Of a stretch of 64,000 nt of DNA, positions 1 to 34,672 are shown in pieces (position 1 is the stretch's first letter; the number at the start of each line of letters is the position of its first letter). Location of the stretch: the NCBI GenBank assembly GCA_002722955.1, contig PBMZ01000076.1, forward strand, positions 11,132 to 75,131, written 5' to 3'. The position numbers and the translations under genes are program-made. This stretch comes from Planctomycetaceae bacterium (lineage in GTDB: Bacteria; Planctomycetota; Planctomycetia; Planctomycetales; Planctomycetaceae). Below the pieces are notes generated by a model. That model was not told the DNA's origin. It made no database searches and saw only the letters and a program-made list of their open reading frames with translations.

Positions 1-700
1 GGAGTTCGGAGCGTTGATACCGATGTCATCGATACCGTCGAGGTTGAAGTCACCAACCGTGAAGGCTTGCTCAACAACACCTGGGAATCCGAAGCCAGGA
101 TTGCTGAAGCTGATCGTTGCATCGACATCGTCACCGAAGCCGTCGTTTGCCAAGTCGAAGGTGAAGGTATCCGCGTCGGCTCGGTAAGCACCAAAGTCAT
201 CCAGGCCGTCACCATCGAAGTCACCCACGATCGGTTGTCCGCGGAGAGCCGTGGTGATGGTCAAGTCGCCGGCACCACCGACGTTGTTGTCACCATCGGT
301 ATCCAGGAAGAAGCGAGCACCGTCGAACAAGCCGACTTCGTCGCCAGCATCTGCCGGTCCACCGTTCAAGACGTCAAAGTTACCGGCGACCGGGATGGCA
401 TTGATTTGCTCACTACTGATCGTCGTGACGTCGGTCACACCATCGTTGTCCGTATCCAGAGCGAATCGGAATTGACCGTTGACCAATCCGTAAGCTCCCA
501 ATCGATCGTAGCCGTCATCGACGCCGAAGGCACCCGAGAAGACTTGATCGGTTTCGATACCAACTTCGAAGACAAAGTCACGGTTGGTGGCGTCGACATT
601 GTCGGTATCGAAGTCGAAGTTGCCGTTGATGTCGATCGAGATCAAACCTTGACCGATGATTCCGATTTCAGGTCGGCTATCGATCGTGAAGCGAGCCACG
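1..700 (-). repeat. FG-GAP / VCBS-like repeats of the giant ORF, running off the window
   Basis: Verified translations: TVGDFNLDGIDDIGINAPNS (1-60), GQPIVGDFDGDGLDDFGAYR (181-240), PVAGNFDVLNGGPADAGDEVGLFDG (301-420) and IDINGNFDFDTD (601-660). Confidence 0.75.
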
Positions 701-3700
701 AAGTCCTCGCCCGGTTGTCCGTCACCGGAAGGCAACAGTTGGGCATCGACGCCGGCACCAGTGGCTTGAACGTCGCCGTCCAAAGCGTTGTCTGGGTCGT
801 CGCCAATTCGATCGGTCACGGTCAACGTGTAACGATCATCTGGCAGCAAGAACAGGTCGCCATCGGACTCTGTGAAGGTCACGTCGACAACCGTGGTTGC
901 TCCCGTGGCATCTTGCGTGGTCGAGACAACTGTCGCGGTATCGATCAGGATCGTTCCGCTAGCGTCACCGATCAGTTGGTAGTTGCCTTCGGACTCGGCC
1001 AAGATCGTGTTTACGGCATCGTGGTTGAATCCGCCTTCACGTTCCGTCGGATCGAAGAAGGTGATTCGCAAGCCGCGGACAGGATCATCGGCACCGGCTG
1101 CAGGCTTCGGTGCGAAGACCGAATCGCCGACACCCGCCGTTCCGTCGATTTGCGTCAACTGAGTAACGTTGGTGACCGTCGGGCCTTGCGTGTCGACGAA
1201 GATCGTCAAGGTGTCGATGTCCACCGCGTCTTGCGTGAGGTTACCCGCCACGTCTTCCGCAGTGACCGTCAACGTTCGCAGTCCGTCAAGACCGAGGCCA
1301 AGTTGCGGATCGTTCAAGTTGATGTTCGAGGTGATCGTCCACTCGCCGGTGACATTGTCATCTAGAATGTCGCCACCGAAGGCTTCGTTGCCGTCGAAGG
1401 GCGTCGCCACCGTTTGACCGATCAGCACGCGGTCACCGTTGGTATCGTCGACGAACACTCGAATGATCGAGTCTGCTTCGGCAAGACCGAAGAAGGTCGG
1501 AGTCGAGTCGCTCGTGATGCGATCGGAAAACGTGCCCGCTTGACCGTCGACACCCGAATCGCTTTCGGCAGCCAAGCCATCCGTCATGCTCACAGCATTG
1601 CCAGCATTGTCGGGCAGACCAAAGGCAACCGGCGGCACGATCGTGTCCAGCGTGACTTGCAAGGCGTCGCTGAGTTCACCGCGGCCTTCAACTTCCGGAT
1701 CGGCAGGATCACGGAACCAAGTGGCAGCTTGGATGAAGTTGTTGTGACCTTCTCGCAACTCGCCGTTGTCCAGCGTGATTTGCCATGTTTGCTCAACTTC
1801 AGTGGCGTCGAGCAAGAAGGCGTTACCAATGCTGACACCGTTGTTGAAGACCTCAACACCGTAGTCGAATCCGACCGTTCGCAAGTCATCGTCCGTCGTA
1901 TCTGGCAGCAGGTCGAGGTTTTCGAACTCTTGCAATCGATCGCCATCCAAAATGATGTGGAAGATCGAAGGATCAGGTGTCGGAGTGGTGCTGATGTCAG
2001 CATCATCCGTTGTGGCATCATCATCGAAGGCGGTGATGTCGTCTGTGTTGCTGCGGCCACTGTCCGTGCCAGCAGTCAGATCGACAAGCTCAGGAATCGG
2101 TGCTTCAACGTTGACGACGGTGAAGTTGTAAACGTTGATCGAATCGACCGTGTCACCAACAACTTGCAAGAAGTAAGTTTGGTTGCGGATGACAGGAATG
2201 GTGACTCGCTCACCAATCACGTTGCCAGCCGGATCCGTAAGGTCGGTTCCTTCAGCAACGTCGCCAGCGTCGTTTTCAACAACTCGACCAGTGGTTGCCA
2301 AGAAGACACCGTCCGAATCGAAGATGTTGATGTTCAAGTCACCGTCACCCGGCAGACCAGCTCGACCGTTGCCAAGCGTCGCAACTTCATCGAAGTAGAT
2401 TTGGAAGTCCAAGGTTCCTGTCTCAGCAGCAACGAATTGGAAGAAGTCGTTGTCGCCCGGAACACCGAAGGCTGCCAATCCACCTGGATCGATGGTCGGA
2501 TCAACATTGATTGTCGCACCCGAGCCAAGGAACGTGGCGTTAGCCAAGCTGTTGTTGGCTTCGAAACCATCTGGCTTGAAGACAACCAAGCGGCCTTCAC
2601 TGTCTGTTCCCGTGCCAGCAGTGATGTTGTTGAACGGTGTCACGTCGGTGAACTCAACACCGCTGTAAACAACTGGTGCCAAGGCTCCGACGGTGAACGT
2701 TCCGGTTCGATCGTCTTGACCGACGCGTTGGATGATCGTGTCACCAATGCCTTCGTCGTTAACGATCAAGCGATCACCGAACGCGTTCGGGTCGCCAGCA
2801 TTCACGGTGAACTGCAAGCTTGAGGCTTCCGTACCGGCAGCAATCAAAGCGTCGCTTGGAGTGACACTGATGATGTCATCGCCAAGGCCACCGTTGATTT
2901 CGGCTTCTTCGACCGTGTCGTCGACCAAGGTATCGGTCTCGACCGTACCATTCGTGTCGTGGACCAAGGTCGTGGCATTCGTTTGAGACACGATGAACTG
3001 ATCAGCATCCGAGGTGCCATCGATTTGGATCGTATCGAATCCGCCACCACCGTCGATGGTGTCGTTGCCTGTTCCGCCGATGAAGGTGTCTTCACCGCCG
3101 CCACCCGACATGTCGTCGTCGCCACCTTCACCAAGCAGGAAGTCGTTGCCATCGCCACCGGTCATGGTGTCGTTCGCACCGCCACCTGCCAACAGGTCCT
3201 CGCCAGTGCCGCCCGAGATTTCGTCTTGGCCGGAACCGCCTTGGATCGTGTCGTTGCCAGCACCACCAGCCAGCGTCGCGTTGGCGTCTGTTGACGTGTT
3301 GTTCTCAGTGGTCAAGACGTCGTCACCCGAGTTACCTCGAAGAACAATGTTGATGTTGTCTTCGACGTTCTCACCCGCGTTGATCGTGTCGTCACCTTGG
3401 CGACCATTGACGGTCAAGGTGTCGGCATCGGCAGGAACTCCACCATCGATGTTGATGTCGTAAGCCAATCCGCTGACAGTGATCGTATCCGCGGCAGCAG
3501 GTGCCGTGATTGCGATGTCGTCATCGTTCGTGCGGCCTTCAACCGTGACGGTCTCGGCATCACCACCGGCTCCGAAGTCGATGTTGATCAAGTCGACGCT
3601 GGTTTGAGTCAGATCGTCGATTTGAACGTCTTCGGTACCCGTATCACCGTTGATATCAATTTGTTCAACGTTGGTGATGTCGAGGTCAACGCCACCTTGA

Positions 3701-6700
3701 GTTCGTTGCAGCAGAGTGCGAACCGAGTCGTTGTCTTCAACCGCCGACAATGTGAAGTCTTCGTCAGCAACCGTGCCAGCATCGGCACCGTTGAAGATCA
3801 CCACATCCGAACCGCTGCCGCCTTCGATCGTGTCGTCGGCGTCGCCTTGGTTCCAGATGAAGGTATCGCTGCCATCGCCACCGTTGAAGACATCGGCACC
3901 GCCGTCACCGGTTACTTGGTCGTTACCAGTCCCGCCGTCGATCGTGTCATCACCATCGTCAGCAAGCGTTGCTCCACCACCATTGTCACCAGCAATGATG
4001 TCGTTTCCGCTACCACCGAAGATCAGGTCGTTACCGTCGTTACCTTGAACATTGTCGAGGCCGGCTCCAGCGTCGATCGTATCGTCGCCTGTACCACCAG
4101 TAATCACGTCGCGGCCGCTGTCGGCGTTGATCGCGACACCAACCGAGTCGACTCCGCTAACATCGACCGTGTCAGCTCCGATGCCGCTGTTGATCGTCAA
4201 TTCGTGAGCAATGTCGTCGTTGAAGGTGACCGAGTCGTTACCTTCACCCGTATTCACAGTCATCGAACTCAGATTGCCGTTCGTGTAGTCAATGCTTTGA
4301 CCGTTAAAGGCAACCGTGTCGGTGTTTGCCGTGACGGTGTCGTCCTCGGTCGTGCCGTTCAAGATCAGGTCGTCATCGTCCGCCGGGTTGGTAGCGAAGA
4401 TCACGGCGTCAGCCGTGCTGAGGTTTGTCGGCTCGACAGTAAGCGTGTCATCGCTGCCCGCTGTATCCGCATCGATCGTGATACTGTCAAAGCTTCCGGT
4501 GACTTCGATCGGCGTCAAGTTGTCGCCCGTGATGCGATCACCTTCGGCTCCCGGTGCGACGAGGATGTTGTCATCAGCGTCGGTGTCGTTGACGACCAAG
4601 ATGTCTTGATCGGCATCCGTACCGGTAACAGCCAACTCATCAATACCGATGTAAACCACGCTCAGTGCGGCTCCACCAGAATCGACGCCAATCGTACCCG
4701 TTCCAATGACATCCGGAATCATAATTCCCGTGATGGTCGCTTCACCTTGGCTGACAGTGATCGTGTCGTCCTCGGCCGCCAAGTCGTTGATCGTCAAGAC
4801 ATCGGCAGTACCCGAGTCATTACCGATCACGTTAACGATTTCCAATCCGTCCAAAGCGTTGTCAGCGTTGATGTCAAATGCATCGTCGCCACCGAGACCG
4901 TCGAGAGTGATCTCGCGGATGCTGACCGGATCGATCGGCACTCGCGTTCCGTTTTCGTTGAACACGGCAACCGTTCCGTCTCCGTCATTATTTTGGATGA
5001 ACAAGTCATCGCCGGCCGAACCAATCACCACCAAAACATCGTCTTCGGCTCCACCGTCAACGATCAACTCGCCAGCGGTCGAGATGTTGGTGTAATTGAT
5101 GCCAAGCAGCGTATCGACCGTGTTGCCAGCATTGATTTCGCCAACAACGACTCGACCCGAGCTTGAATCTGCACCCGGCGTCGCGACGATTCGGTTGGCA
5201 GCCGCCGAACCATTAACCGTCAAGACATCGGCTTCGTCTTCCGCATCGTAGTTCAAGTCTTCCGTGCCGGTCAGAGTGATCGACAAGCCGTCAACAGCCA
5301 ACGTTGCAGCATTCGTCGTTCCAGTTGCAGGACTGTACGTGACAGTTGCGTCTCCGGTGTCACCCGTCACGCTAACGATATCAGCGTTTCCAGCACCGGC
5401 AGTAATCGTCAGACCGCCAGCCAAGTCAGCGTCACCATCGACGAGGATATCGTCGTCACCGTCACCAGCTTGGATCGTTACGGCTGTTTTGTTGTCGAAC
5501 GTGATCGATTCGAAGTTATCGATCTCGATCAATCCATCACCAGCCTCTGTGTCGTCAACATCAGTCAAGGTGATGTCGTTGTCATCACCAGTCGCGACAA
5601 CCGTCAACGGACCTGCAACGTTGTCCGTCACAGGCTCAAGCCCGGTGAAGGTCACCAACTGCGTATCACCGTTGAACACAATGCTGCTCGTCCCCGAAGT
5701 CTCATTCGGGCCGACAGTGTACGTGTTGCTGGTGACGGTATTGGTGCCTTCCAAGACCAGATCATCGCTGCCTTCACCGCCGTCGTACTCGATGCCTTCC
5801 GAGACACTCACGGCACCGTCGGTTGCATCGACGGTCAAGGTGTCGTCACCCAAGCCGCCTTCAACCACGATGTTCGTGATGTTCGTGCCTGCCAAGCCAA
5901 CATAGGTCGTGTCGACACCGTTGATCGAAACAGTCAAATCACCATTGGCTTCCGAATCCAACTCGAACGTGTCGTTGCCGTCGGTTCCCGTCACCAAGAT
6001 TTGATTCGTTCCACCAGCAGCATTCGTCACCGTGTCGGTTCCGCCACCTGGGATAAAGGTGTCGTTACCGGCATCACCGTTGACCGTGTTCGTTCCCGTT
6101 CCTGGGCTCAGAACATCGTCGCCAGCACCACCGTTGATCGTGCTGTCTTGTCCGTCTTGGCCGGTAAGGTTGTCGTCACCGTCGCCGCCGTTGGTCAAGT
6201 CAGCGCCGGAGATCACGTCGTTGCCAGCACCACCGTTGACAGTGACACCGATGTTGTCGAGCGTCGCCACATCGATCGTGACCACGTCGTCGCCTTCATT
6301 CGCATCGATCGTAAACGTGTCTTGATCGGTATCGTCCGAGTTAGTGACGTTGATATCGTACTTAAGTCCTTGCAACGTCACCGTGCCGCCGGTTTCTGTG
6401 AGTGCCAAGTTGTCGGCATCCGTACGGCCTTCAACAGTGATCGAGTCGGCTGCGGCATCGTCGACGCCGTTGCCTTCCAAGTTGATGTTCAACGTATCCA
6501 GTTGGGTCGTGCTCAAATCGTTGACTTGAACCGTTTCCACTCCACCGGCATCCGCGTCGCCAGCGTCAACGCCGTTGATGTCCAGTTGCTCGACGCCTTC
6601 GATCGACAAGTTCACGCCACCTTGAGTCCGATCCAACTCGACCCGGCCACCCGTGCCGGCACTGACCGTGAAGTTCTCCGTACCGCCCGCTTCGTTAGCG

Positions 6701-27700: not shown

Positions 27701-30700
27701 TTCGTGGTCGTACCCCCCGACAAGTCCACGCTCGTCACGCCCGTGCTCAAGTCAACGTCGCCGCCGTTCGCCAACAGATCGACGCCGGCACCCAAATCGA
27801 CTTCGGTGTTGACGTTCGAAATTGTGATGCCAGCGGCGCTGGTCACGTCGCCGGTCAAGTTGACTTGGTTGATCTCATCGATCGAAACCGATGTGTCTGA
27901 GCTGGTGACTGCTACCAAGTTTGCTGTGTCGTTGTCATTTCCAGTACTGCCCGCAATTGAGACTCCACCGGCATCCAACGTGCCCGCATTCAACGTGCCG
28001 CCGTCACCTTCCCCATTGAAGCTAACACTCAAGTCACCATCGGTCCCAGCCGCACCCGTGCCGCCAAGATCAACAGTGCCGAGCGTGACATCGTCATCAC
28101 CGGAAACCGTCAGGTTGGCATTGTCGGCGGAAGCCGTCACATTGGCCAAGCTAATATCGGCCGCATTGCCACCATCCGTGGACGAAATCATGTTCGTCCC
28201 TGTACCAGATAAGTTAATGGCCGAGACATTCGTAGTCGCCGAAACGCCACCGTTTTGCGCTGTCAAATCAACATTTGCTGCCAAATCGACACCACCGGCT
28301 GCGTTCTGTAGCGTGATGCTGGTTCCGGCAGTGACGTCGGCGTCCAAATCGATATCGTCATTGGCGCCATTATCGCCCGCTCCACCGGACAGGGTGAGAG
28401 ACGTACCGGCGTTCAAACCGGAGGCAGTCAATGTCGCTGTACCGTCGGCGTCCGAATCCGCGGTTACCGAGATTGCGCCGCCAACCGTGGCAGTGGTGAT
28501 GTTCACGTTGCCTTCAGAATCAACCGTCAGCGAGTCGTCATTACCCGGATCGGTGACCGTGCCCAGCGTGACATCTGCATCGGCATTACTTTCCACCGTC
28601 ACTGTGTTGCCACCGGCTTCCAGTTCCACATTGCCTGTGATCGAAGCCGCACCGGCTGTTGCGTTGTACGTCGTTCCATTTAAATTCGTGACAGTGCCTG
28701 AATCGACATCAATCGTGCCTGCTTGAACGTTTTGCAGGTTCACCGTCGCGCCATCGATCGTCAAGGCTTCCAAGTCCTGGCCGCCACCAACACTCTGCGC
28801 GCCAGCTTGTCCTTCAACATCACTCTGCAAGTCAACCGTGCCACCGGTACCGCCATTGATCGTCAAGTTATCCGTACCGGCCGCGTTGGCACCATCAATC
28901 TCGTCACGAATTGTGACATTGGCACCTGCCGCACTACCGCCACCATCGGTGGTGTCGAGAGTGCGATCTCCGTTAACCAACACTGTGTCGTTGATCGTGA
29001 TCGAATTGCCTTGAGTGACTATGTCGGCGTTCAAGGTCGTCGTGTTGCCGTCTCCGTTGACTGTGATCGAGGCGTTGTCGTTACCGGTAAGTTGCCCATC
29101 GATGACTACGTCGCCGCCGCCTGCTCGCAAGATCACGGGATCAACAAACGTGACGGCGTTGGCAGTGATCTGCCCCGTCTGATTCGCTCCACTTCGACCG
29201 ATCGAAATCGTGTCGAAATCGTCATTTTGCAAGTTATCGATATCCGCTTGAGAAAGCGTGAACGTTCCTGCAGCCCCCGCCAGTCCGATCGTGTCGGTAT
29301 TGTCATTCGGTTGTAAAACGATATCCGCGTTCTCAGCCGCCGCGGAAATGTTACCCGTGATGTTGATGTCATCGGCGGTGAACGTCGCCGTGCCACCACT
29401 GATGGTTGAGAGTCCCAGTGTTAGCAAGTCGATGTCGTTGATGTCGATGTTATTGGCCGCGCCTGAGTTCGTGATCATCAGGGCATCGCCGGTGTCGTCG
29501 TCGTCAAAGTCGTTGTTGGCATTATCAAGTGCTATGGAAGCATTTCCTGCGTCCAAAGTCGTTGTCCCAGCAACACTGAGCACTCCAGCTCCAGAATCAA
29601 CGATCATGCCGCCAGTCCCAAGACCGGTCGTATTTGTGTCAACGCTCAAGTTGCCACCAATGGTGGCCGTACCTGTGAAGTCCACAGAGTCGTTGTTCGC
29701 CACCAGGTTGCTCATGTTGGCATTGGCGGTGAAGTTAGCCGTAGTCGTCACCGTGTCGAACGTGATTCCATTGGCATCAGTAATCACGCCAGTTGCCGTA
29801 TCCGTTACGGAGACGGCACCTTGAAAGTCATTATTGATCGAGTCAATCGTGACGTTGTTTGTGTTGGCGTCAAACGATGCAGTTCCCGAAACAGTGAGCG
29901 TTCCGCTGTCCGTGACGTTGCCATCAGAGTCGAGAACCAAGTTCCCGACAGTTGTGTTACCACTGAAATCAGTACCATCGTTTTCAGTAATGCTTGCTGT
30001 TCCAGCCGTTGTCAGCGTGATGCTGGCTGCCATGAAGTTATCGCCAGCTTGATCGCCCAACGTGATGTCACCCGTCGCGGTCAAGACAGCCGTATTGTCC
30101 GCTTGGAAATCAGATGTGGCCGCATCCGTAATGGTTGCCGTACTCATCAAGGTGATGGTTGTTCCGAGCGCCCCATCGAGAACCATATCGCCTATTTCGG
30201 TGATGTTGATGGCACCACCGTCAAAGGTCAATGTGCCGAACATGTTGGTTCCATCCAACGTAATGTTCGAGCTGTCGTTCGAAATAAATCGCGCATTATT
30301 GGTGACGGTGATTGATGCGCCATTGGCGTCAGTGATCGTTCCCGTAGCGCGCAAGTCAAGGTCTGTGGCTACATTCGTTCCTGTTAGCACCATTGCATTG
30401 TCTTGAACAATGGTGGCAACGCCCGAATTAAAGTTCAAAGCGCCAAACATTACCGTATCCGTGGGCAATTCACCCATGATGACAGACGCACCTTCAAAGC
30501 TGGCCGTGCCGCCAACTGAGGTCGACACACCATTCGGGTCGGTCACCGCGGCAACGGCATCCACGGTCAAGTCGCCGTCGATTGTTGAGCTTCCGATTTC
30601 GATACTGTTGGCGTCGTCAAGTGTAACATTGTCGGCGCTCGTAACGACGACAGTCGTGAAGTCGTTTCCTGCATCATCCAATGTGATATCATTTGTGCTA

Positions 30701-31617
30701 CCCGCAGCAATTGTCGCTGTATTCTCGACTTGAATCGCGCCTGTTCCCGTCACATCGCCATTGGCCGTGATATTCAACGGCGCATTACTTCCGCCGTCTA
30801 GAACAATCCCTGCCAACGAAACCGTGCCACCCGAGTTGATCGTTAGTTGCGCTGGGCCTGCGGCTGAATCAGTAATGGCACCGAGGCTCACAGTACCCGT
30901 TCCACCTGCGGAAAATTGATTCGTGCCGCCCGTTCCATCAATATCGATGGTGACGTTCGATGACGCGCTTAGGTTGCCGTTTGTAGCGTTGAGATTATCG
31001 CCAGCTTCGAGAGTTAGGGCGGCATTGTTGATCGTCAGACTTGTGCCAGCGGTCACGTTGTCATCAATATCGATGGTGTTATTTCCGCCGTCACCATCGA
31101 GCACGATGGAACTGGCCGTGCCATTGTTGGTGCTCAGACCGACGGGCAAATTGATCGTGTCGTCCCCGCCCCCAAGGAGCACTTGAACCAGTTCCAATGC
31201 ATTGAAGTTGGCAGGCGAAACGCCCGTGAAATCGATGGTGTTGGCATCCGCATCACCGAGGATGTCGATCACTTCCACGTCGGCGGGCACGACGTTGCCG
31301 CCAGTACCACTACCACCGGCGACGTTGGCCCCATTGACCAAGACCTCGTCACCCACAACTGTGATGTCGATGTCATTGTCCGTGGCAATGTCAATGTCGA
31401 GTGTGCCCGTGCCGGCATCAAAGGCAATGGTGGTCAAGAGCTTTTTGTCTTCCAGCTCCTCCACGCTAGGAGTCATTTGGACACCTGTGTCATGGGTTTC
31501 CAACGCTTTCTTAATGCGGCGTTTCTTTTCTCGTCGCAAGCGTCCTCGGAGGAGAGCCGAGAACATGCGGTTGACAACATCTTTGTAACGACCGTCGAAC
31601 AAGCTACCTGACAACAT
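1..31617 (-). CDS. Giant extracellular repeat protein, partial. The N-terminal >=10,539 codons are in the window and the C-terminus lies beyond the window start.
   Basis: The ORF is absent from the supplied track because no stop codon lies inside the window. The minus-strand ATG at 31617 is preceded by purine-rich AAGGGAAGGA 9 nt upstream. There is an in-frame stop at 31717-31719, and alternative in-frame ATGs at 31683 and 31689. I hand-translated the minus strand at 1-60, 181-240, 301-420, 601-660, 1441-1560, 2041-2100, 2161-2220, 2341-2460, 2521-2580, 3015-3290, 3521-3560, 3781-3900, 6721-6840, 9961-10020, 14941-15000, 17941-18000, 19681-19740, 21016-21069, 22441-22560, 23791-23859, 26941-27018, 27325-27381, 29341-29400 and 31435-31617. 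Every segment is stop-free and protein-like in the same frame (first codon base at coordinates divisible by 3). The track has no minus-strand ORF in that frame anywhere in 1-31617. All 16 listed minus ORFs there end at coordinates equal to 2 mod 3. That is what a single frame open to the window edge predicts. Confidence 0.93.
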   Translation of the reverse strand, partial: MLSGSLFDGRYKDVVNRMFSALLRGRLRREKKRRIKKALETHDTGVQMTPSVEELEDKKLLTTIAFDAGTGTLDIDIATDNDIDITVVGDEVLVNGANVAGGSGTGGNVVPADVEVIDILGDADANTIDFTGVSPANFNALELVQVLLGGGDDTINLPVGLSTNNGTASSIVLDGDGGNNTIDIDDNVTAGTSLTINNAALTLEAGDNLNATNGNLSASSNVTIDIDGTGGTNQFSAGGTGTVSLGAITDSAAGPAQLTINSGGTVSLAGIVLDGGSNAPLNITANGDVTGTGAIQVENTATIAAGSTNDITLDDAGNDFTTVVVTSADNVTLDDANSIEIGSSTIDGDLTVDAVAAVTDPNGVSTSVGGTASFEGASVIMGELPTDTVMFGALNFNSGVATIVQDNAMVLTGTNVATDLDLRATGTITDANGASITVTNNARFISNDSSNITLDGTNMFGTLTFDGGAINITEIGDMVLDGALGTTITLMSTATITDAATSDFQADNTAVLTATGDITLGDQAGDNFMAASITLTTAGTASITENDGTDFSGNTTVGNLVLDSDGNVTDSGTLTVSGTASFDANTNNVTIDSINNDFQGAVSVTDTATGVITDANGITFDTVTTTANFTANANMSNLVANNDSVDFTGTATIGGNLSVDTNTTGLGTGGMIVDSGAGVLSVAGTTTLDAGNASIALDNANNDFDDDDTGDALMITNSGAANNIDINDIDLLTLGLSTISGGTATFTADDINITGNISAAAENADIVLQPNDNTDTIGLAGAAGTFTLSQADIDNLQNDDFDTISIGRSGANQTGQITANAVTFVDPVILRAGGGDVVIDGQLTGNDNASITVNGDGNTTTLNADIVTQGNSITINDTVLVNGDRTLDTTDGGGSAAGANVTIRDEIDGANAAGTDNLTINGGTGGTVDLQSDVEGQAGAQSVGGGQDLEALTIDGATVNLQNVQAGTIDVDSGTVTNLNGTTYNATAGAASITGNVELEAGGNTVTVESNADADVTLGTVTDPGNDDSLTVDSEGNVNITTATVGGAISVTADSDADGTATLTASGLNAGTSLTLSGGAGDNGANDDIDLDADVTAGTSITLQNAAGGVDLAANVDLTAQNGGVSATTNVSAINLSGTGTNMISSTDGGNAADISLANVTASADNANLTVSGDDDVTLGTVDLGGTGAAGTDGDLSVSFNGEGDGGTLNAGTLDAGGVSIAGSTGNDNDTANLVAVTSSDTSVSIDEINQVNLTGDVTSAAGITISNVNTEVDLGAGVDLLANGGDVDLSTGVTSVDLSGGTTTNLIDASAAVSAANVNFTDSADGNATLRIDAGTNIDVNGITLDGDGEDAGVLDINLDTDGDDTATLNVNGAISTGGAITVNGQGTNDTMNFDSLVTSATGSVTIDTADVVNLDGDVDAGTGVTVQNVNSDINIDASANRMITANNGNVDFDNNVNQITLDGGSNAVTIEANGGGDVELDDVVDDGAGGTAASLNVLAQGNATFTTINLNDTTDGNLSISIDTDNNDAAATLTINAGQISNVASASFSGGTDDDDILDINDNISTTNGSLTTTNFNDVQIDASAARALSAVNGNVNIGVGATGGITLDNGDNTVTISATGAGDADVTLAAVATDNGTDGANLTVNADGGANFTTIDLNGTGTNGDLQFDIDADGDSTETLTIAGDINNVNSLTVANGEANDTTFINTASFTTDTTQTYGDSVILGPGTVTLNGTDITFNAVDDDGTDSDLVVIGSGDTTFNGVVGGTNPIASITTDAAGNTVINANLNTDGGTMTFNDPVLIGAGGVTLDDSGATGIAFNDTVDSVATETNSLTVTTTNAASDISFDLAVGGTNPLDTLTINNAGTLTIAAAGDITLDGAFDQNGGAVTTAGDITTTNDNVDFGGTVAINGAVAIDTDTGTGTVTFASTVNGQNADGNDDLTVTAGTGNADFQADVGGGVDLELLDVTAATIDVQNVTADVIDLDATTVDLNATTYTAAVGTLTIGDGNTVNLQANAGTTTITTVGNANLTLGTIADPAAADALSVVGEGNIDIDAATAQGNINIDVDGPTDNGARTLDTGAIDSTTGSVDIDGNGGDDLVNLTGNVDAGTTIGINTVATVDIADGADLTSDDGGIDVSTNVTSINLSGTAGTTTVDATDGATAANANITLANVTDSSDGRNLTVDADDDVTLGTVTLDGDGAGAATGHGDLSVNFNDDDDAGGNTLAAGTIAAGGVTITGSATSASDTANLGQIDSSDTGVSIDEVDQVNLSADVTAATTLDITNVDTEIQLADNVNLTANNGALDVATGVTLIDLNGAAATTNTIDGNGDANVSVGPVTAANDVNLTINSEGNATLDTIDVNSGVLSINIDNDNDNDGAGGGGLTASFDDLAAGTVNVTGGTDDDETLTFTGTVSSDTAGVSISQADTVELQGNVTGQTSVTISDVTTDIDLAADVDITATTMGIDVDNSVGGITLSGTTGTNSLTAGTSIDANTAITDSGDGPAELDISAGSGIELGSITLDGTNNTNLDVNLDTGTNGSTLNANGPISVAGDITVDGTGTDDTMNFDMSVDSTAGSVTINQSDIVNLDGNVSAGTSITVSNVNTNTNIDASAARSITANSGAVSIDGPIVLDNGPATNAPTVTVSANSAATGAADAGDVTLDDLTTGSAGDSPSLTVNATGGVTTGTVNLDGATGGDADGAFEVNIDTDDDSGETYNLNGNVTNAASVTVTGGATGDTNGDTVNINADVTTTAGGIDISDAQTVNVTDTRNLTTADGDIDISTGIGSISLNGNGTTVTLDANGADPGGSSAEADIHLGSVVTNNQTTGAALTVAADGDVDISAGVDLNGGTTDGALTIDIDDDNDTDGASISFDGNVTNVASVTVNGGTDNNDTASITADLATTAGAIDFNNFANITLDSTAGQLDIDAVGGNVELQTTVTAITTAGTNLIEITADNGTGGDVNLANLTDDGNMGEDAADVTITADGSASLGTLDLDGAAGQADGALVIAIDSNDDSTETLVINANQISNVESIDLSGGATDDNDILDINGDVATSDGSFVISDFNDVQINAPTAGTRSLTAVNGDFDANTDVTMITLDGDGAVSISASGVEGDTSDADVILASMVDDAAGGDGADLSVVADGSLTLNGINLDGGANADGELVLTADNAGADDVETITIDATIQNIASLIAGGNNGNDETVDVNADVTATAGGITFRNANVELDASAARALTSTGGDIDMTTNVGMITLDDGSNTVTIDANGDTGGGDDADVSLGPVVDDASGTIAANLTVNADGGVTLDSVSLSDNTNGNLNVNVDVDGANGNETLTVSGTISDVAVATFSGTGSNDQADIDANISTTGGALTIQTFDDVDLAVGVDLAAVGGNLELDTALNTITVSGDDDEATNTLSSDANVNADTPISDSDEGPDVLAISAGMDITLDSVTLDGDNDPTLDIDVDTGAAGTQTLTVNGNLEAGTVEVNGQDTNDDMIFVGTIESTDTSVTIDGAGTVNLDGNVTANSSITIQNVGTEIDIAEDVDLDAQGGDASLDNSVTQIDFSGTAATNTVSATGNVGLADIIDSNAGPAEVNVQAGGDLDVDVVTLDGGSNAILDLDVDTDDTGGDTFTASGNVTAGTVEANGQGTNATSDDAIDFQGTVDSTTAGVTIGNAMDVDLDGDVTAQTSVSIDNVTTVNLASGVDITATTGSVDIDDDDVDDIELSGTTTNVISANTTVTLTDISDTDAAGPTRFTADATGGDLTINAITLDGTATQTVDLLAGNDLVDDNGTDLNITAENLAIDVGGDAGSGVGVVIETAVSNLAVDAGGNVSITNTGALTIDEVTTLAGMVTGITSGGEVRITATSPITINEDIIAVDDIIITATDSMGTGDDVTIADGVTIRSTNGGIIINAGDDFIMNGANSVIRTDNGDITINIDAGDADANVPATATIAGIVNASNGAGAGSMFINGENDDDATPVGGDGPTGDTITVRIADVATAFGITNAQVGTFEVDGNDPLAVIGDTLNVNSDPGANPNLVLTPTNAGGEAGFTFTAGFQNLDFQEIEVVDSDTNFQLTIDIDNSQAGNVAAGTEIIDAGDQFRNNIRLEGQANGNLRVFAEDVGDGIGEVEQLQFELGTGAINNIVVTGSGEDDTLIVDNSLSVYVPVTGGSITFNAAGETTSDNLEVIGGTGIARTTYQPDDSGQAGDGVLTLDPDGNQGFALGTAANGDEQVINFNDLETDAGTPLSDVLLTTGSTILDIFLTDQADGATLVDSMEGATNTNTLQDGAGTFADIEFANQVGVTINALDGADGVTLTSTTAAASLTSIDVFGDQQTGGTDDGAADALNAEATTVPTSLDGQDGDDTFLIGNATGAGANNIAADVTVTGNAGGNDQLTVSDVGDPDGDNGDLTSTTVDFDGAAGQITYGTIEGVTVNLSAFADTFDVQSTLATAPVTVNGNAGNDQINVQSIDSATAINGDADDDTINVSSDAPTNAGDANGINAVLTISGGADTDTINVSDVADGNDNTLRLSDNQIGGGAFNAAVAAGGIFDTNGIINYGDGTNDIENLDIDLGNGNNTINIDDAGTTDATGATAMTNVDDGTGNSTWTIQSNALNATANHNFSGNAGNDTFNLEFDAGTDASGGTFVINGNAPATDAANRDIVNINLPVADGLRQASITYDNSASGDVLLDLDNTTGTGTIIDANTVETINYNGDNANDDQITVNDTGDPTVFTITNIMNTSVSVLLDGGVGAGGGTEPGPDLNLFGLTNGDGALNTFGDVGLNIDGMDPTLITTPDIVDYDGSAEVFLFSPTSGTIVNDIDNDDANDPITVDFQNIEDSDTDNNGEEDVIIDLNNFEIGGQPVEDGNADTVEVQISPDDPTLIQLIINDIVAFEQERGTFRALSVTGSNDDDTFMIDDASGIPTFQGDILTDIAGTNANMDNLLTGVDDNANVVPSVLFQGGMGNDSIDITLTGSSTEVRYGIGDGVGTVADATGNMGELTFENATDQFSVFFTGLAPITATGAGTDLTVIGTNNSETINVVRLDADTTQINGTSSGVPFESFDFDADMFNTLTIFGEGAVDTIDVQGFADDEDALTTITIDGDGQANGDNSADTLIVRSTSALPTATATLNMLGGDGSDTFILDSDGNGDFGAGTVDNIQIPIAVSPNINNEAADDDGDTDQLFIIDTDDTGGGDTIEITDGGIEGITGETNGTATTDITYNAGGQVENITIFTGTVAAGETINIQSTDAGSTYFLATQAGTDIINISGAAPDLDAGAGNLDAILGQLNIDTGADADNLNISDFDDTEGDQYEVDQVDPTTMGELTEVLFNRFSGGAGMGPLGATPNAADPLAQDVTYNADIADADGGATSNAGNAGNLENFRLIGADAVSNIYDILDTTGTASNTIEDGDAVADNGGNAVFNISLEDPDTGAATDSIVQVNASNTFRGFDGNDRFDLEFGADDFIPAGTFVIDGGTLAADPANRDVINVFTNGDTITRNLNVTYDKANGTGDVDVTGLGGTSVDFNEVEQVNFDGDDSNNDNVTITGSQMDDTLSVTPLDDNSAHVFIDGDPLLTIPPDDFNTNNPGIDDDDAGLASPGPDIYLDGLERVNGLTFDGANGTTDDDRLIVNTTTENSAGDLDETSGFGPNAAAAVENGVTNEPTAVNDDAIEATNQAFDTITVTDSLVAIERFNDSDVSQGQLVNVNIVTNTFSRTDDTEAELTVNTGDEDGVRTTGIGDDVTVTLSTNFRFQINGGDFPEPADVPLRGDRLRVNPLADGDFTIFADAATDSDTQAAPNDPNVSITSANLLATSDELVFADFELVTLRPDDASQTVNIIGDNNGIGAGNANNQDEIIVTGNFDAASIIDPDVGSAEEDGDNANEAYVLINGSSPIGIFNVHHLNIDGRGGDDDITIDPYAEDNTGGWDIDISIDGGTAGETNGDDIFYGNIERDLTLQSGLFFLDNDPDGSVAGVSENVNIVASTTAFAGQIQVTNATDATNIATIDFINTEDISVNLNDGSAGDTDSLTFTGTAVVDMLDVNFTDAGDDSSATAAWIDSSVGGAATFSIERFVQASPNTGAAPTLSNLDEVNLNLAGESDSVTIVGRSGLSNLLAPTVINLDGGDPISGDSINLPGTDDATDSFTITSGLFVDSGTLDVILDSENVVNPTPLTRINYVNTASINVDGGNNTGTGGPEEIVFNGQEGADFLSLGANGLETTAQGTPFNFDNLGPGSQVTLDGAGGDDVISVDPLALAGNAATANITRVIVRGGDPEASDELIVTGSANDDTINFDFTGAMNSEITVTGANAVVDLDDSIETHVIDGGGGDDTLQIEDSDGTSDTFTLTPGTAEDRGTVQVDQRAPIAFQDIGTGGTLALTGSGGASSFTYNAGENNDTFSLAANGTINLNSQVGVTTTAIESSTFNAAGGDDTFTILQGSTLDEAVSFVGGDGDDSVNANVDGATDADINLADGTLTGIADGVITLDSSIEGLSVIGQDDTDNDVNISGYGASTNLTSISINGGDDDDDDADTIDIALVAGANTLVVTPINGTNATVSRNGSPDLDISGLNDNAGSLTLDTDADDEVQIAGSVGNDSFTVTAAGGTTVVPTISGTASVQVDFDGNGPLVINGGDGDDAVTVDSTATDLLTGTTTFNGGDGDDDLNITGDNNGNGITNVAYTPGPTDDAGTITHDAQTILFTGLEPVVDTTTATNLTINGTAANNSITYSNNGGNGLVAVDSFETYEFSNKTNLVIAAGDGDDTITLNNPATNGAAGLTNFTVQGGSGTDTISAVSDDDATSPVALDLAANTLSGVIDNAAGASIAVSLETFEAVNVVDDGTTHAASATALDITAPATATAFAFTPGATGAGTITAGAIPVTFTGITSAEEIDLTGGAAAGDSLSIGDIAGDTTITASPDQITINGLAPINLDTSTDATRIESISFDLTSGSDSITVTPTTEGDSSDGVTFDINGNGDDSLTVATGGDNATITSNSVVIDDGTNTAGAVTFGGTSLAITGDGDIVLTGTANDDTFVINPSDGTVDINGSVVELNGSTNITVDGAGGNEDLVIVNGTSGNDTVSVDRDDANNNTQITANGVTTTLVAASENLQISTGLGDDTVTVSDVETNGVSVSVDTGSGGDTLILEDDNAAFVVTEGADGESGAVDVNGNTAGGSTAFTDVEAITLDGNNTTISVTVTGSGDADEATFTGGANADDASVTVGEFAPISIVDAGAASTFNLNTGDGDDNVSLAANDGNFTTFNVDLGAPTASDSVVILGDTGNDGITFAAATGVVTVASTTNTATFNVTNEEALTIDGNGGTDTLNVTGDAAGSTFALQSLSASSGTIQVDGGLPVAFQNIGSTITLTGDADDDDTVVLTGSADNDSVTLTSASLTVNGRAYTLASQETVTLDLLDGDDTADVTPSAGFTANVNGGNNDNDSLTIQQASTAATVTNGSVTVGTGVVNQTGIENITVMGDGAVDLDGTTGDDTIVVNADGTAQINSGPSFNLDASTDIEADGISGDDTVNVNGTALADTVTVDRTAGTVAFNAGITVTVSNQDTLNLSTGLADDDITVSGTGGPSTIQVDGGEPGASDTLTLTSADADAAFTLTPGSEAGTGTGVVDGAATSYSGIELVELDAGAGANADAVTLNATGGADQISFTGDAANSDDATVSISSVAISLLNFTDASTVTFNAGDGDDSITIARNAATNFDTFDVNAGSPGASDNVEVTGTAGADTFTYHPSATVDADSTVGINGATVNITDAESVELVGLGDADTLTANDDGNATADSVVLTPAGNDSGTFQFNSSSPVTFTGAESVTIDLDGTATDSVTVNGTNSLDTVDVNDDTVTVNGQAFTIDNNETLTINTIDGDDDVTITDGDGATTINVATGAGDDSFTVVDGNGATTINGDLGDGIDSATVTPTTGTTVNLDGSGSDSLAIQHRAATDDDYTLVVADANTGQVTEANSAGDTNYDGFNSVTVNGEADDGDSLTVSATGADDDLTLSAGANGDVLVGADIPTVTLTGDVTDFAINGQGGDDSLTVNALGLANATTYTYTIDANEGNNDLTVNSGDGNDTVAGTDGTLDVNGVDLVYTAGALDDYTINTLEGNDSVTTGAITDDVRINTAGGNDTVDASAATSTVTVNGGAGDDNITGSGQADVIDAGSGNNTVAGGAGADVIDTGDGNDTIDGDDADDVITSTGGDNTINGGNGADLITTGAGNDVINGDDGGANQTDDGDDTINSGDGNDTVQGDAGNDVFFGGAGSDVFTWFQGDNNDTIEGEDGDDQVIFNGANANEAGGTENFTVSAGTGGRVELDRTQGGVNLSIEGVEQLDINGVDAGDADAGGVETVQVNDLSTTQLDTLNINLEGNGVDDAAADSITVEGRTDADNLALTETGGTVTLQGLKYDINVTNSDDTDQDTFTIDANEGDDVVTIDVATLDNIGVTVNGGAGNDVISGADLTNGGDGDDNLTGQDGQDSTINGGAGDDVLSPGTGTNTVNGDAGNDTFIPGGGTDTVTNAAGGTNQILVTGTDGNDTFELDSEANGDLTVSINGVDTTYVGLAGTNITNIVVEGGLGDDTLTVDATDGAVSVSEGIEYDGGEGSDDLVLEGTNTVTSNTYTVGPNETSGTSSIVFNGDTQLVTFTGLEPVTDNVAGPLTVVATGDDNDITLTDVDDTEAGDGLIEIDNFESITFDNKTAVTIQAGDGDDDILVDGDADLAGGLTITAGAGNADIVSVTGDTGDATVTYSPATGTTNAATLAVDGLSITLTGTEDLNYDAEDEADVLTVNGSAAANRIVATPGADSSSGRVVVGEINAGNTVDTLLGINYTNISTAGELIVDGGAEDDVLVVIGSAGDDLFIQNNDGDGTVAVFNENGTRVPIDPVSIREITLDGLGGDDAFDINADNALDGLEIVNVIGNDSGTADVLTINDLAAEDDTITVSQGEATITGIMIPDVIGTGTIGVDSGGAALSVVYIGIDELAVTGTDADQDILVVNDTDADDNILVAPGAEGDRITGDNLTPIEVTGSFDSITIDADTAGSDDTLTVEPTNLSTADAVIFATNPADDDDLILNGTTEDDTVTANTDTVAFNGQSIDYTNGNLSSMTVNTGEGNDSVTFNDDIAHELTINSGIGADTVDVSGVDSVGVAINADSGRDVITGGTGDDTIDAGAGLDNVQGNDGNDLIFGGSGNDIIAGDNGGGATLADDGDDTIDGGTGNDQVTGDGGADVFNGGDGSDTFIWNQGDADDTIEGGSGSDVVIFNGADAGTVADEDFTLSAVEDNDSVRTLLQRTQGGVDLDITNVEQIDINGDTGTEDVQIDDLTQTSVDLINIDFGAGGDAETVTVEGRTNDDDIAITAPAAADTITVSGLAYDINIDGGVPADADTLTVNGRQGDDTINAGENVEDNINIVLRGNSGDDVLTTENNTSTDANATLAGGAGNDTIQGGSGQDEISGGTGEDLLAGGGANDTMTGGDGNDFLLGEGGDDDMSGGGGEDTFIGGTGNDTIDGGGGFDTIQIDGTSDADQFIVSQTNATTLVHDTNGTVETDTLVDDTVEEAEINGGLGDDIISVTPSDALIAAGTEASSLQFTVNAGDPNAFGDRLIVNDEGIGDTIIQRVGQDDRTGTFTVGALAPVVYSGVEFTDVTPFNNITAGTGTDSEGRLVVFKPDGFEANNSLANATFLGSGATINVDPTIDPGGLAAFGVPGDNDFFQFVAAETGTLDFQIYFDEVATLGNGRAGLPGDGDLNINIFDSDGVFLATTGRVVENDAGDVAEGTDLTDPAGNVIGERVTIPVIRNQTYFLQVVGDTVDSINVYNFTVVNVEAPIPELVDLTAGTDSGRSNTDDITAFDDDATTDDADISTTPTPDPSIFHIILDGDRLQEFENLDLLPDTTDDDLRTVGFDYGVEVFNNGVSIGNAFLLDATEVEQTWQITLDNGELREGHNNFIQAATWFRDPADPEVEGRGELSDALQVTLDTIVPPVAFGLPDNAGNAVSMTDGLAAESDSGVDGQAGTFSDRITSDSTPTFFGLAEADSIIRVFVDDTNGDRVLIGQTVATPFDGNEAFGGDILDDNVTGEWTITSNINLNDPQLGLGLDGLRTLTVTAEDVAGNLTQDAVDIDTLTIFVDTQGPTVTNVTQLTQIDGTAGVGDSVFAPKPAAGADDPVRGLRITFFDPTEREGGFNHDAVNTILAESEGNYQLIGDASGTILIDTATVVSTTQDATGATTVVDVTFTESDGDLFLLPDDRYTLTVTDRIGDDPDNALDGDVQATGAGVDAQLLPSGDGQPGEDFVARFTIDSRPEIGIIGQGLISIDINGNFDFDTDNVDATNRDFVFEVGIETDQVFSGAFGVDDGYDRLGAYGLVNGQFRFALDTDNDGVTDVTTISSEQINAIPVAGNFDVLNGGPADAGDEVGLFDGARFFLDTDGDNNVGGAGDLTITTALRGQPIVGDFDGDGLDDFGAYRADADTFTFDLANDGFGDDVDATISFSNPGFGFPGVVEQAFTVGDFNLDGIDDIGINAPNS
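1380..2100 (-). other. Bacterial Ig-like domains of the DSGxSxxDxIT / TPTFxG type within the giant ORF
   Basis: Verified translations: PIPELVDLTAGTDSGRSNTD (2041-2100) and DSGVDGQAGTFSDRITSDSTPTFFGLAEADSIIRVFVDDT (1441-1560). This signature is common in Ig-like domains of RTX-type adhesins. Confidence 0.65.
2150..2570 (-). other. PPC (bacterial pre-peptidase C-terminal)-like beta-sandwich domain of the giant ORF
   Basis: Verified translations: FKPDGFEANNSLANATFLGS (2521-2580), PGDNDFFQFVAAETGTLDFQIYFDEVATLGNGRAGLPGDG (2341-2460) and VIGERVTIPVIRNQTYFLQV (2161-2220). The E(A)NNxxxxA...GDxDFFxFxAxxxGxL pattern is typical of PPC domains. The family assignment is from motif memory only. Confidence 0.6.
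3015..3290 (-). repeat. RTX block A: nine consecutive GGxGxDxUx nonapeptides
   Basis: Verified translation: ATLAGGAGNDTIQGGSGQDEISGGTGEDLLAGGGANDTMTGGDGNDFLLGEGGDDDMSGGGGEDTFIGGTGNDTIDGGGGFDTIQIDGT. Confidence 0.9.
3780..4120 (-). repeat. RTX-type Ca-binding block B inside the giant ORF
   Basis: Verified translations: GADVFNGGDGSDTFIWNQGD (3841-3900) and ADDTIEGGSGSDVVIFNGAD (3781-3840). These are paralogous to block D. Confidence 0.8.
6020..6290 (-). repeat. RTX-type Ca-binding block C inside the giant ORF
   Basis: My rough translation gives VNGGAGNDVISGADLTNGGDGDDNLTGQDGQDSTINGGAGDDVLSPGTGTNTVNGDAGNDTF. Coordinates are approximate. Confidence 0.65.
6730..7200 (-). repeat. RTX (hemolysin-type Ca-binding GGxGxD nonapeptide) block D inside the giant ORF
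   Basis: Verified translations: DTVQGDAGNDVFFGGAGSDV (6781-6840) and FTWFQGDNNDTIEGEDGDDQ (6721-6780). The adjacent sequence reads as repeated GxGxD(T/V)(I/V) units. Confidence 0.8.
7300..19700 (-). repeat. Coding zone 2 of the giant ORF: heterogeneous ~90-120 aa beta-sandwich-like modules punctuated by (I/V)NGG(D/A)G(D/N)D-type acidic motifs
   Basis: My spot translations give fragments such as ISVTVTGSGDADEATFTGGA (9961-10020), FDGDDSNNDNVTITGSQMDD (14941-15000) and GGGAFNAAVAAGGIFDTNGI (17941-18000). My rough full translation shows recurrent GDGDD / GNGND motifs. A module of the form ...F(T/N)GLEPV(T/V)D...FE(S/T)xxFxNKT...AGDGDD appears near 11.1-11.9 kb and again near 5.2-5.9 kb. Boundaries and domain families are not established. 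Confidence 0.5.
19700..31400 (-). repeat. Coding repeat zone 1 of the giant ORF: degenerate ~105-115 aa T/D/G/N/V/A-rich modules (beta-solenoid-like stalk) with a ~4.48 kb super-repeat
   Basis: A recurring signature was verified by hand at three sites: VNLDGNVTANSSITIQNV (21016-21069), VNLDGNVSAGTSITVSNV (23791-23845) and VNLDGDVDAGTGVTVQNV (27325-27381). Paralogous segments TLTINAGQISNVASASFSGGTDDDDI (26941-27018) and TLVINANQISNVESIDLSGGATDDNDI (about 22460-22539) lie exactly 4479 nt apart. Zone boundaries are approximate. Confidence 0.7.
31435..31617 (-). other. N-terminal leader of the giant protein: no hydrophobic signal core, a basic stretch, then a VEELEDKKLL motif (31435-31464)
   Basis: Translation: MLSGSLFDGRYKDVVNRMFSALLRGRLRREKKRRIKKALETHDTGVQMTPSVEELEDKKLLTTIAFDAGTG. 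The LE(D/x)(R/K)xLL motif close to the N-terminus recurs in large planctomycete extracellular proteins. That recurrence is from my recollection and is not verified here. Confidence 0.6.
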
Positions 31618-34191: not shown

Positions 34192-34672
34192 GAGATTCTC
34201 CGGTTGGTAATCAAAGCACGCTCCGCGTGTTCGTTCGTGGCAGTTTTCCGCATCGAGCCTGAATTGCCACTTTGCGTATCCATAACAATTGCGCCCAACC
34301 GCCTACTATCCGAGAATTCTCCCACGAATCAAGCCTCGGCTCTGGTGAATCCAGACGACGGAATGCGATGAGGCATTTTTCGAAACACTAATCGGCGCTA
34401 ATTCTGCGCGCATTGAGAATTCGTAACGCGCTCGACTTTATGTCGGGGGTTCTCGCGTTTTTTCACTACGACACGACGAATAGTGCAGAGACGCGAGAAC
34501 CCCTGAGTTCAACTCAGGGGCGTTTGAACAATTGAAGGACAGAGCTAGTCTTTTCTGATTAGCGTTCAATAGTGTCGATTAGCGTTCCCAACCAGTTTCC
34601 CCCGTTCCCTTCCCCGAACGCATCGAAGTTGATAGAAGCCAACTGACGAATCTATGATCTTTGGGGAGCGGA

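Follow-up and report, generated by a model that had tools for sequence, protein, structure and literature searches.

Introduction

Giant genes are a recognized, functionally unexplained hallmark of the Planctomycetota. They were present in 29 of 29 planctomycete genomes examined by Kohn et al. (2016, PMC5177795), who also described the 'giant genes' of Fuerstia marisgermanicae and Gimesia maris; genes longer than 30 kb occurred in two genomes only, and the maximum was 36,239 bp. In Tuwongella immobilis, the motif RRLxxExLExRxLLA is found on eight of the ten longest proteins (4,016-10,566 amino acids, aa), and proteomics detected 20 of 52 motif proteins, eight of them in the sodium dodecyl sulfate (SDS) envelope fraction only (Seeger et al., 2021, PMC8567305). 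The motif had been proposed as a planctomycete-specific export signal (Studholme et al., 2004) and is represented in Pfam by PF07595, 'Planctomycete extracellular' (Planc_extracel), a model of 20 positions. The passage of such megadalton proteins, which lack classical signal peptides, across the planctomycete envelope is a standing question. Here we analyzed 64,000 nucleotides of a marine Planctomycetaceae bacterium (positions 11,132 to 75,131 of contig PBMZ01000076.1, assembly GCA_002722955.1; this whole stretch is called the window), half of which is a single minus-strand gene that we refer to as the giant. Its product is likely a megadalton, Ca-binding extracellular or cell-surface fiber that is exported by means of an N-terminal leader and consists of a solenoid passenger followed by a constant C-terminal cassette.

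Results

Half of the window is one gene

1..31617, minus strand: giant open reading frame (ORF), codons 1-10,539 of 11,033; stop-free frame and Tara Oceans gene call; stop about 1,485 nt left of coordinate 1

Scanning the minus strand revealed a stop-free frame that spans window positions 1 to 31716 (10,572 codons). Counted from the first plausible start, the ATG at 31617, the frame comprises 10,539 codons and reaches coordinate 1 without a stop. An earlier sequence-only reading of the window had claimed an uninterrupted minus-strand ORF of at least this length, open at coordinate 1. The frame scan agrees exactly, with zero stops between 1 and 31617. The same reading had explained correctly why an ORF track did not show the frame, as the ORF lister leaves out frames that run off an end; the plus strand of 1-31716 holds antisense shadow ORFs, the longest of 699 aa. 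Since about 4% of random codons would be stops at the base composition of the window, the probability of such a run is about e^-440 (arithmetic from base counts) and a chance origin is ruled out.

We considered whether the frame, instead of encoding a functional protein, might have arisen in assembly or belong to a gene that is decaying or not expressed. The giant is known from metagenome assemblies alone and as DNA sequence, and its protein-level sequence is repetitive. However, no DNA-level tandem repeats were found by Tandem Repeats Finder across the 31.7 kb and the internal protein repeats are at most ~55% identical to each other, so that repeat collapse or expansion in the assembly is unlikely. 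An independent assembly from Tara Oceans (ENA TARA_SAMEA2622804_METAG-scaffold_421, 53,191 bp), found by exact look-up of the neighboring sulfatase, was compared over window positions 22677-42120 and differs at 4 of 19,444 bases. Two of these mismatches lie within the giant gene and both are synonymous. The codon-position GC content of the giant (0.57 / 0.47 / 0.62) resembles that of neighboring genes, homologues exist for both ends and the middle of the protein, and one relative matches it co-linearly. Together with the 10,572 codons free of stops, these findings make an artefact or a decaying gene highly improbable.

The Tara gene table calls the giant from the same ATG as a product of 11,033 aa that is complete inside the scaffold. 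Compared with the 10,539 codons seen here, 494 aa and the stop (1,485 nt) therefore lie to the left of the window, in line with the larger full protein that the earlier reading had expected. The giant itself is absent from the protein set that we searched exhaustively with HMMER, and a scan of JGI metagenomes for the locus gave a 42%-identical paralogue locus as the sole match. Two neighboring proteins are identical to NCBI MBM80901.1 and MBM80925.1 ('Planctomycetaceae bacterium'), and the close homologues of the giant all come from Planctomycetota, under the names Planctomycetaceae, Pirellulaceae or Planctomycetales. Half of the window is thus one real gene of a marine Planctomycetaceae bacterium.

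The product is an acidic, cysteine-free protein of about 1.1 MDa

The part of the protein encoded in the window has a mass of ~1.05 MDa and the whole 11,033-aa protein of ~1.1 MDa. Six residues, D (13.9%), T (13.7%), G (13.2%), A (10.5%), N (8.9%) and V (8.3%), make up 68% of the sequence. There is no Cys, and Lys (13 residues or 0.12%, seven of them in the leader), Trp (8 residues, 0.08%) and Arg (1.1%) are scarce, giving a net charge of about -1,635. The ~9,600 aa after the leader are repetitive, Cys-free and rich in Asp, Thr, Gly and Asn. These counts agree with the Asp/Thr/Gly/Asn/Val/Ala-rich, Cys-free and Lys/Arg/Trp-poor composition given in the sequence-only reading. Its placing of the protein among the largest bacterial proteins was overstated, as 7,478 public proteins of at least 10,624 aa are known from a survey (West-Roberts et al., 2023). 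The giant exceeds all of the best 150 relatives retrieved here (maximum 7,658 aa) and tops its family in this sample, but among bacterial proteins at large it holds no exclusive rank.

The N-terminus carries a variant of the proposed planctomycete export motif

31432..31617, minus strand: leader, aa 1-62; basic run without a Sec-type hydrophobic core; blastp homology to leader-bearing relatives
31435..31464, minus strand: VEELEDKKLL, aa 52-61; regular-expression pattern common to 10 relatives; motif hidden Markov model (HMM) built from relatives only

The leader consists of a basic run and the sequence VEELEDKKLL, after which the first beta-strand begins; 10 of the 30 residues ahead of the motif are K or R. 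The same order, a basic run followed by hydrophobic-E-x-hydrophobic-E-x-R-x-L-L, heads 10 relatives, which were taken from the homologues of the N-terminus as well as those of the C-terminus. Alignments by blastp extend from the basic run across the motif into the first module for P0048 (E=6e-8, aa 23-125) and P0041 (E=1e-7), two of the relatives numbered P0001 onwards in our searches. Chiefly because this homology to leader-bearing relatives crosses the motif, we read the leader as a Lys-for-Arg variant of RRLxxExLExRxLLA (PF07595). The basic run and the ExLExRxLL-type motif lie within the first ~60 aa and are positionally homologous to those of the relatives. When PF07595 was run on the relatives' own leaders, three scored 13-16 bits, below the gathering score of 25.5.

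The N-terminal third is a predicted beta-solenoid that lacks a two-partner-secretion domain

19738..31431, minus strand: Zone A, aa 63-3,960; filamentous haemagglutinin (FHA)/DUF5649-like beta-solenoid (predicted fold); PF18886, iterated HMM, alignment
13018..19737, minus strand: Zone B, aa 3,961-6,200; heterogeneous block; without Pfam or Protein Data Bank (PDB) match, conserved in large planctomycete proteins

In the Pfam scan, DUF5649 (PF18886) matched five stretches within aa 1-1000 with E down to 3.6e-27. Iterated HMM searches and alignment resolved Zone A into ~12 divergent super-repeats of 290-330 aa. Neither a PDB sequence search nor an 11-row profile found a solved relative of Zone A, for which we infer a beta-helix or beta-solenoid fold.

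The relatives of Zone A are DUF5649 proteins, and those from Proteobacteria, Cyanobacteria and Omnitrophota carry the filamentous-haemagglutinin two-partner-secretion (TPS) domain. Could the giant then be a TpsA exoprotein that leaves the cell through Sec and an outer-membrane TpsB? DUF5649 repeats occur in its N-terminal 3,900 aa, and outside the planctomycetes the relatives of these repeats bear annotations as filamentous haemagglutinins or TPS-domain proteins. However, the TPS domain PF05860 is absent at E<=1 from both aa 1-1000 and aa 1-500, and in planctomycete DUF5649 relatives the leader motif stands in place of this domain. We found no Sec-type hydrophobic core in the leader, where the maximum Kyte-Doolittle value of any 12-mer is 1.0 compared with 2.3-2.6 in true TpsA matches, and no TpsB/POTRA/ShlB-type gene occurs in the 32 kb upstream (window 32-64 kb). 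These results largely refute the TpsA reading, which we regard as very unlikely.

Zone B matched nothing in Pfam or the PDB. It shows an 11-residue periodicity in aa 4000-5000 and is aperiodic in aa 5000-6200. The stretch from aa 5009 to 6800 aligns with the relative P0169 at E=8e-166, and P0213 and P0210 align as well. A wider block without Pfam or PDB matches, aa 4,550-6,800 (approximately window 11218-17970), shares 28-32% identity over 1,200-1,800 aa with the same three proteins and is a candidate for an undescribed domain array inside giant planctomycete proteins.

Part of the central region is modeled as a continuous RTX-like beta-roll

7168..13017, minus strand: Zone C, aa 6,201-8,150; degenerate RTX-like beta-roll rod (predicted); iterated HMM, autocorrelation, AlphaFold2 and Foldseek
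2668..7167, minus strand: Zone D, aa 8,151-9,650; four canonical RTX blocks; PF00353, PDB sequence matches
6931-7092, minus strand: RTX block 1, aa 8176-8229; canonical nonapeptide repeats
5887-6237, minus strand: RTX block 2, aa 8461-8577; canonical nonapeptide repeats
3778-4185, minus strand: RTX block 3, aa 9145-9280; canonical nonapeptide repeats
2950-3285, minus strand: RTX block 4, aa 9445-9556; canonical nonapeptide repeats

Iterated HMM searches detected ~45 copies of a degenerate module of ~75 aa with GGDGDDT(I/L)TV-type turns over aa 4,137-9,417. The modules have an 11-residue strand-turn period (lag-11 autocorrelation 0.19), and the Pfam HemolysinCabind RTX model does not detect those of Zone C. 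We modeled aa 7274-7673 (window 8599-9798) with AlphaFold2, using an alignment of internal paralogous windows and six external relatives. The model (predicted local distance difference test, pLDDT, 87.8; predicted template modeling score, pTM, 0.81) contains ~40 short strands in one uninterrupted body. Its best Foldseek match is the RTX domain of CyaA (7rah_E, E=2.9e-6, probability 1.0), and the next matches are RTX lipases, serralysins and RsaA. As modeled, this stretch of Zone C is a continuous degenerate RTX-like beta-roll or solenoid rod, not a row of beta-sandwich beads.

In Zone D, canonical RTX blocks alternate with 75-aa modules and a duplicated non-RTX module. PF00353 matched at E=4e-17 and 2.7e-28, and PDB sequence matches include the CyaA RTX domain (1.4e-34), HlyA, RTX lipases and serralysins. 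Pfam annotation captures the RTX-like sequence in proteins of this type very poorly.

The sequence-only reading had outlined a leader, a solenoid zone, a beta-sandwich zone, RTX blocks and PPC-like, Ig-like and FG-GAP-like domains. The Pfam scan and module models that it had suggested recovered DUF5649, RTX, Big_13 and FG-GAP and gave structures for Zone C and the C-terminal region described below, and the outline broadly stands except for the beta-sandwich zone, whose modeled part (aa 7274-7673) is one RTX-like beta-roll with CyaA RTX as the nearest solved fold. Domain scans, RTX matches and models also support its view of a strongly acidic, Ca-binding fiber of extracellular type.

A C-terminal cassette is shared with far smaller proteins

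2128..2580, minus strand: PPC-like beta-sandwich, ~aa 9,680-9,830; head model, Foldseek, PF04151 in relatives
658..2100, minus strand: three tandem immunoglobulin (Ig)-like beta-sandwiches, ~aa 9,840-10,320; PF19077, head model, Foldseek Ig-type matches
1210-1584, minus strand: Big_13 domain (PF19077, E=2.1e-7), aa 10,012-10,136, one of the three Ig-like domains; Pfam
1..657, minus strand: FG-GAP/VCBS-like repeats with DxDxDG-type Ca sites, aa 10,321-10,539; PF01839 at E=3.8e-4, ending at the last residue; the window edge cuts the module

The region from aa 9,660 to the window edge, here called the head, was modeled from 24 homologues as an all-beta structure (pLDDT 73). Foldseek matched its PPC-like domain to the Ca-dependent collagen-binding domain of ColH (3jqw, probability 1.0, root-mean-square deviation 3.9 Å over 117 columns) and further to the C-terminal domains of the subtilases KP-43 and SubHal. 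In the FG-GAP region, the D/G/N columns are nearly invariant in the homologue alignment. PDB sequence and profile searches with the head gave nothing, as did NCBIfam for any piece of the giant.

The outcome of these searches depended on how they were run. A Pfam scan in 5,000-aa blocks hid DUF5649, Big_13 and FG-GAP, and pieces of at most 1,000 aa revealed all three. Likewise, a word-indexed homologue search gave proteins of up to ~1,700 aa, and exhaustive HMMER gave relatives of up to 7,658 aa. Default homology and domain searches of these kinds systematically fall short on giant proteins.

Exhaustive HMMER with the last 1,200 aa retrieved 7,684 cluster representatives at E<=1e-30, RTX-only matches included. 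The best 150 of these are 712-7,658 aa long, and heads, leaders and tails were counted in 145 of them. The Ig and FG-GAP head is present in 102 of the 145 (median length 2,555 aa), and 54 of these 102 bear the leader pattern, often in the textbook form RRLRLEPLEDRRLLA. The longest relative, P0169 (7,658 aa), is co-linear with the giant through Zone A, Zones B to C and Zone D to head.

Ninety relatives align up to the point where the window cuts the giant and continue for 66-743 aa past it (median 265). From this continuation, about 110 aa of FG-GAP module and about 380 aa of tail are expected beyond the window. Tails with a dockerin-like pattern and an acidic end were found in 24 of the 90, and Dockerin_1 (PF00404) is present in many relatives (5e-11 in P0082); three of the 90 tails are RTX-rich, and tails with WYF-type repeats occur too. 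The relatives closest to the missing 494 aa, P0003 (505 aa beyond the cut), P0106 (518 aa) and P0088 (520 aa), have RTX-rich tails, a weak hint at the end of the giant, and two of them end in ...DVLDSIFLDGIDDILI. As a side observation, an aromatic-rich repeat, ...EKWFRDxxxxWYFITPDGxLxxW..., is present in three copies in the C-terminal ~300 aa of the head-bearing relatives P0079, P0080 and P0134, as a further kind of tail behind the head; Pfam gives no annotation for it in P0079 or P0080.

These tails, together with the canonical RTX nonapeptide beta-rolls, bear on the idea that the giant is a type-I-secreted RTX adhesin of the LapA/SiiE/MpIBP kind, which would leave the cell C-terminus first through an ATP-binding cassette transporter (ABC), a membrane fusion protein (MFP) and TolC, with the N-terminus held at the outer membrane. 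The relatives that match the missing 494 aa in length do have RTX-rich tails, and the C-terminus of the giant and its downstream genes lie outside the window. However, at least 980 aa with PPC, Ig and FG-GAP domains come after the final RTX block of the window, the extender consists of DUF5649 repeats and RTX-like solenoid instead of tandem Ig domains, and the 32 kb upstream contain no ABC/MFP/TolC set. A dockerin-like or acidic tail ends most of the head-bearing relatives, with three of the 90 tails being RTX-rich, and the same relatives bear the planctomycete leader at their N-terminus. We therefore consider a type-I adhesin unlikely, if clearly less so than a TpsA protein.

The cassette is attached to very different payloads. 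P0080 has a matrixin-type metalloprotease before it and P0082 a Sortilin/BNR-type propeller, and locus L003 encodes a stand-alone leader-plus-head protein (9425-12025, 867 aa) with nothing between leader and head. In this locus (JGI Ga0070727_10000137, 8225-13182) the head-only gene lies between two same-strand Legionella_OMP (PF05150) beta-barrel genes (E=3.6e-21 and 3.1e-24), and the second shares 40 nt with the end of the head gene. The two beta-barrels could be anchoring or secretion partners; the window contains no relative of these genes.

As the constant part of the family, the cassette would most likely be a binding or anchoring module that attaches to the cell envelope or to a partner. 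The same protein might also be arranged the other way round, with the cassette as the distal ligand tip and the N-terminus at the cell, or be shed as matrix or a Ca-rich coat. In other systems, domains of the PPC/ColH and FG-GAP types do bind ligands, as in the collagen-binding domains of ColH and the propellers of integrin alpha. However, a cassette that stays constant on very different payloads, enzymes included, would rather be expected of a module for sorting or anchoring, and the L003 head-only protein sits between two outer-membrane beta-barrel genes. The reverse arrangement, or a shed coat, is in our view a serious possibility of the second rank, behind an anchoring cassette.

The upstream region encodes sulfatases and a TonB-dependent receptor

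31618..32676, minus strand: non-coding region of 1,059 bp between a sulfatase gene and the giant ATG; 20-nt repeat, ORF and Rfam checks
32256-32275, 32387-32406 and 32551-32570: 20-nt direct repeat AAATCGCCAATTTGTGCCCA, three copies (100, 90 and 75% identity), 131 and 164 nt apart
31604-32065, minus strand: 153-aa ORF, called as a gene in ENA assemblies; overlaps the giant start by 14 nt
32677-34191, 44711-46708 and 47679-49259, minus strand: sulfatase genes, within 20 kb of the giant
49584-51638, plus strand: TonB-dependent receptor, within 20 kb of the giant

The 32 kb upstream of the giant encode three sulfatases, a TonB-dependent receptor, a sigma-54 two-component pair and prenyltransferase-like, squalene-hopene-cyclase-like and DUF4175-like proteins. 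Sulfatases together with a TonB-dependent receptor are typical of planctomycete loci for sulfated polysaccharides, and their presence gives circumstantial support for a particle- or alga-associated lifestyle.

The non-coding region before the giant contains a 20-nt direct repeat in three copies and, at 32220-32231 / 32254-32265, a perfect 12-nt inverted repeat. We examined the direct repeat (TGGGCACAAATTGGCG on the gene strand) by eye as a possible sigma-54 -24/-12 element and rejected this, as its GG-to-GC spacing is 10-11 instead of the required 12. No riboswitch or small RNA scored above the Rfam thresholds in this 1-kb region. The 153-aa ORF, considered as a partner gene, has an unprotein-like sequence without Pfam or NCBIfam match and is probably spurious.

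Farther upstream, 56224-60582 (minus strand) encodes a 1,452-aa protein with N-terminal transmembrane segments and a weak DUF4175 match (7e-5, below the cut-off). It includes a coiled-coil-like stretch rich in E, Q, A and L and ~500 aa of P/S/N/Q low complexity, and its DNA has a strongly negative AT skew (-0.21 to -0.25).

Discussion

We propose that an uncharacterized route, common to proteins with this leader, exports the giant. Folding of RTX beta-rolls, among them CyaA and other type-I substrates, requires millimolar Ca2+. Since this is established for such beta-rolls, the chain of the giant may stay unfolded at the low Ca2+ of the cytoplasm and fold outside the cell in the ~10 mM Ca2+ of seawater. 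The folded product would be a stiff, highly negative rod of ~0.1-0.25 µm, a length calculated from ~9,500 aa on the assumption of 4.8 Å per coil of ~20-22 residues. Its solenoid would act as a variable passenger, be it a spacer, a fiber or an adhesive surface, and the likely role of the whole would be surface fiber formation or attachment to particles or algal polymers.

Several points speak against this proposal. The Pfam HMM of PF07595 did not match aa 1-89 of the giant even at E<=10. The motif HMM built from relatives only, scored on the first 100 aa, gave its best match at aa 53-64 with a weak 5.1 bits; of 2,000 shuffles 3 reached this score, and of 277 natural windows none did. Export by the motif is itself a proposal from the literature and was never mechanistically demonstrated. 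Zones A and B have folds without a solved relative, so that a solenoid there is inferred, and AlphaFold2 may be over-confident on repetitive sequence such as that of Zone C. The last 494 aa and the downstream genes, and with them any dockerin or RTX tail and any partner genes, lie outside the window, so that the anchoring end is a predicted one. Finally, with the gene sequence as the only source, expression and surface location of the giant are predicted properties, the T. immobilis proteomics lending the latter indirect support.

The locus is a clean example, represented in two assemblies, of a modular logic in which a leader is joined to a giant Ca-binding solenoid and to a cassette that is common to far smaller proteins. 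This logic makes the question of secretion and anchoring experimentally approachable; no current view is overturned by the giant gene. We speculate that leader and cassette mark the substrates of an uncharacterized, planctomycete-specific export-and-anchoring pathway whose cargo, without a Sec-type signal, would range from less than 1,000 to more than 11,000 aa. In the same tentative scheme, which we put forward as a possibility and hold to be considerably less probable than the surface-fiber proposal itself, the 11-residue RTX-like beta-roll would be a distinct class of Ca-binding repeat that is missed by family models, and the L003 beta-barrels would be candidate partners.

Comparison with known systems

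Four groups of described proteins invite comparison. Solved RTX beta-rolls, such as those of Bordetella CyaA (7rah, 7usl, 6sus), serralysins and RTX lipases, have the same GGxGxD-type Ca turns and short strands. They match the four RTX blocks of the giant by sequence (E down to 1e-34) and Zone C by predicted fold. In contrast to these beta-rolls, Zone C has a period of 11 instead of 9 and is unseen by PF00353, the RTX-like region extends over thousands of residues compared with ~100-700, and no type-I secretion context is seen for the giant in the 32 kb upstream.

The type-I RTX adhesins LapA, SiiE, MpIBP and FrhA are likewise giant, acidic, Ca-dependent fibers that combine RTX with C-terminal ligand-type domains. 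Their tandem Ig-like extender, their RTX abutting a C-terminal signal and their adjacent secretion genes are not seen here, with the C-terminus of the giant lying outside the window. TpsA proteins of the filamentous-haemagglutinin type share DUF5649-type beta-helical shaft repeats with the N-terminal third of the giant, which differs from them in having no TPS domain, no Sec signal and, on the upstream side, no TpsB neighbor. The sequence-only reading had held that the architecture cannot be assigned to a described adhesin family. By the tests run here this is true of both type-I RTX adhesins and TpsA proteins; it does not extend to the giant planctomycete surface proteins with the PF07595 motif, a class that the giant fits.

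Indeed, the giants of T. immobilis, F. marisgermanicae and G. maris come from the same phylum, reach the same size class (>30 kb), have extracellular-type repeats and, like the giant, no assigned function. They carry the same basic run and ExLExRxLL-type motif without a Sec hydrophobic core; the leader described here has KK for RR and is missed by the Pfam HMM. Whereas the T. immobilis giants contain integrin-beta or Ig repeats, the shaft here appears to be almost all beta-solenoid or RTX-like. The closest relatives of the giant are the metagenomic proteins P0169 (7,658 aa) and P0213, P0216, P0155 and P0106 (5,500-7,000 aa), with 31-43% identity to it. These relatives are shorter, their tails differ (dockerin and acidic, or RTX) and the ~12 super-repeats make Zone A of the giant much longer than theirs. 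Their order is nevertheless like that of the giant: a Zone-A-like solenoid, Zone B, 75-aa modules, RTX, PPC, Ig and FG-GAP. The giant thus fits the described class of giant planctomycete cell-surface proteins with a PF07595-type motif.

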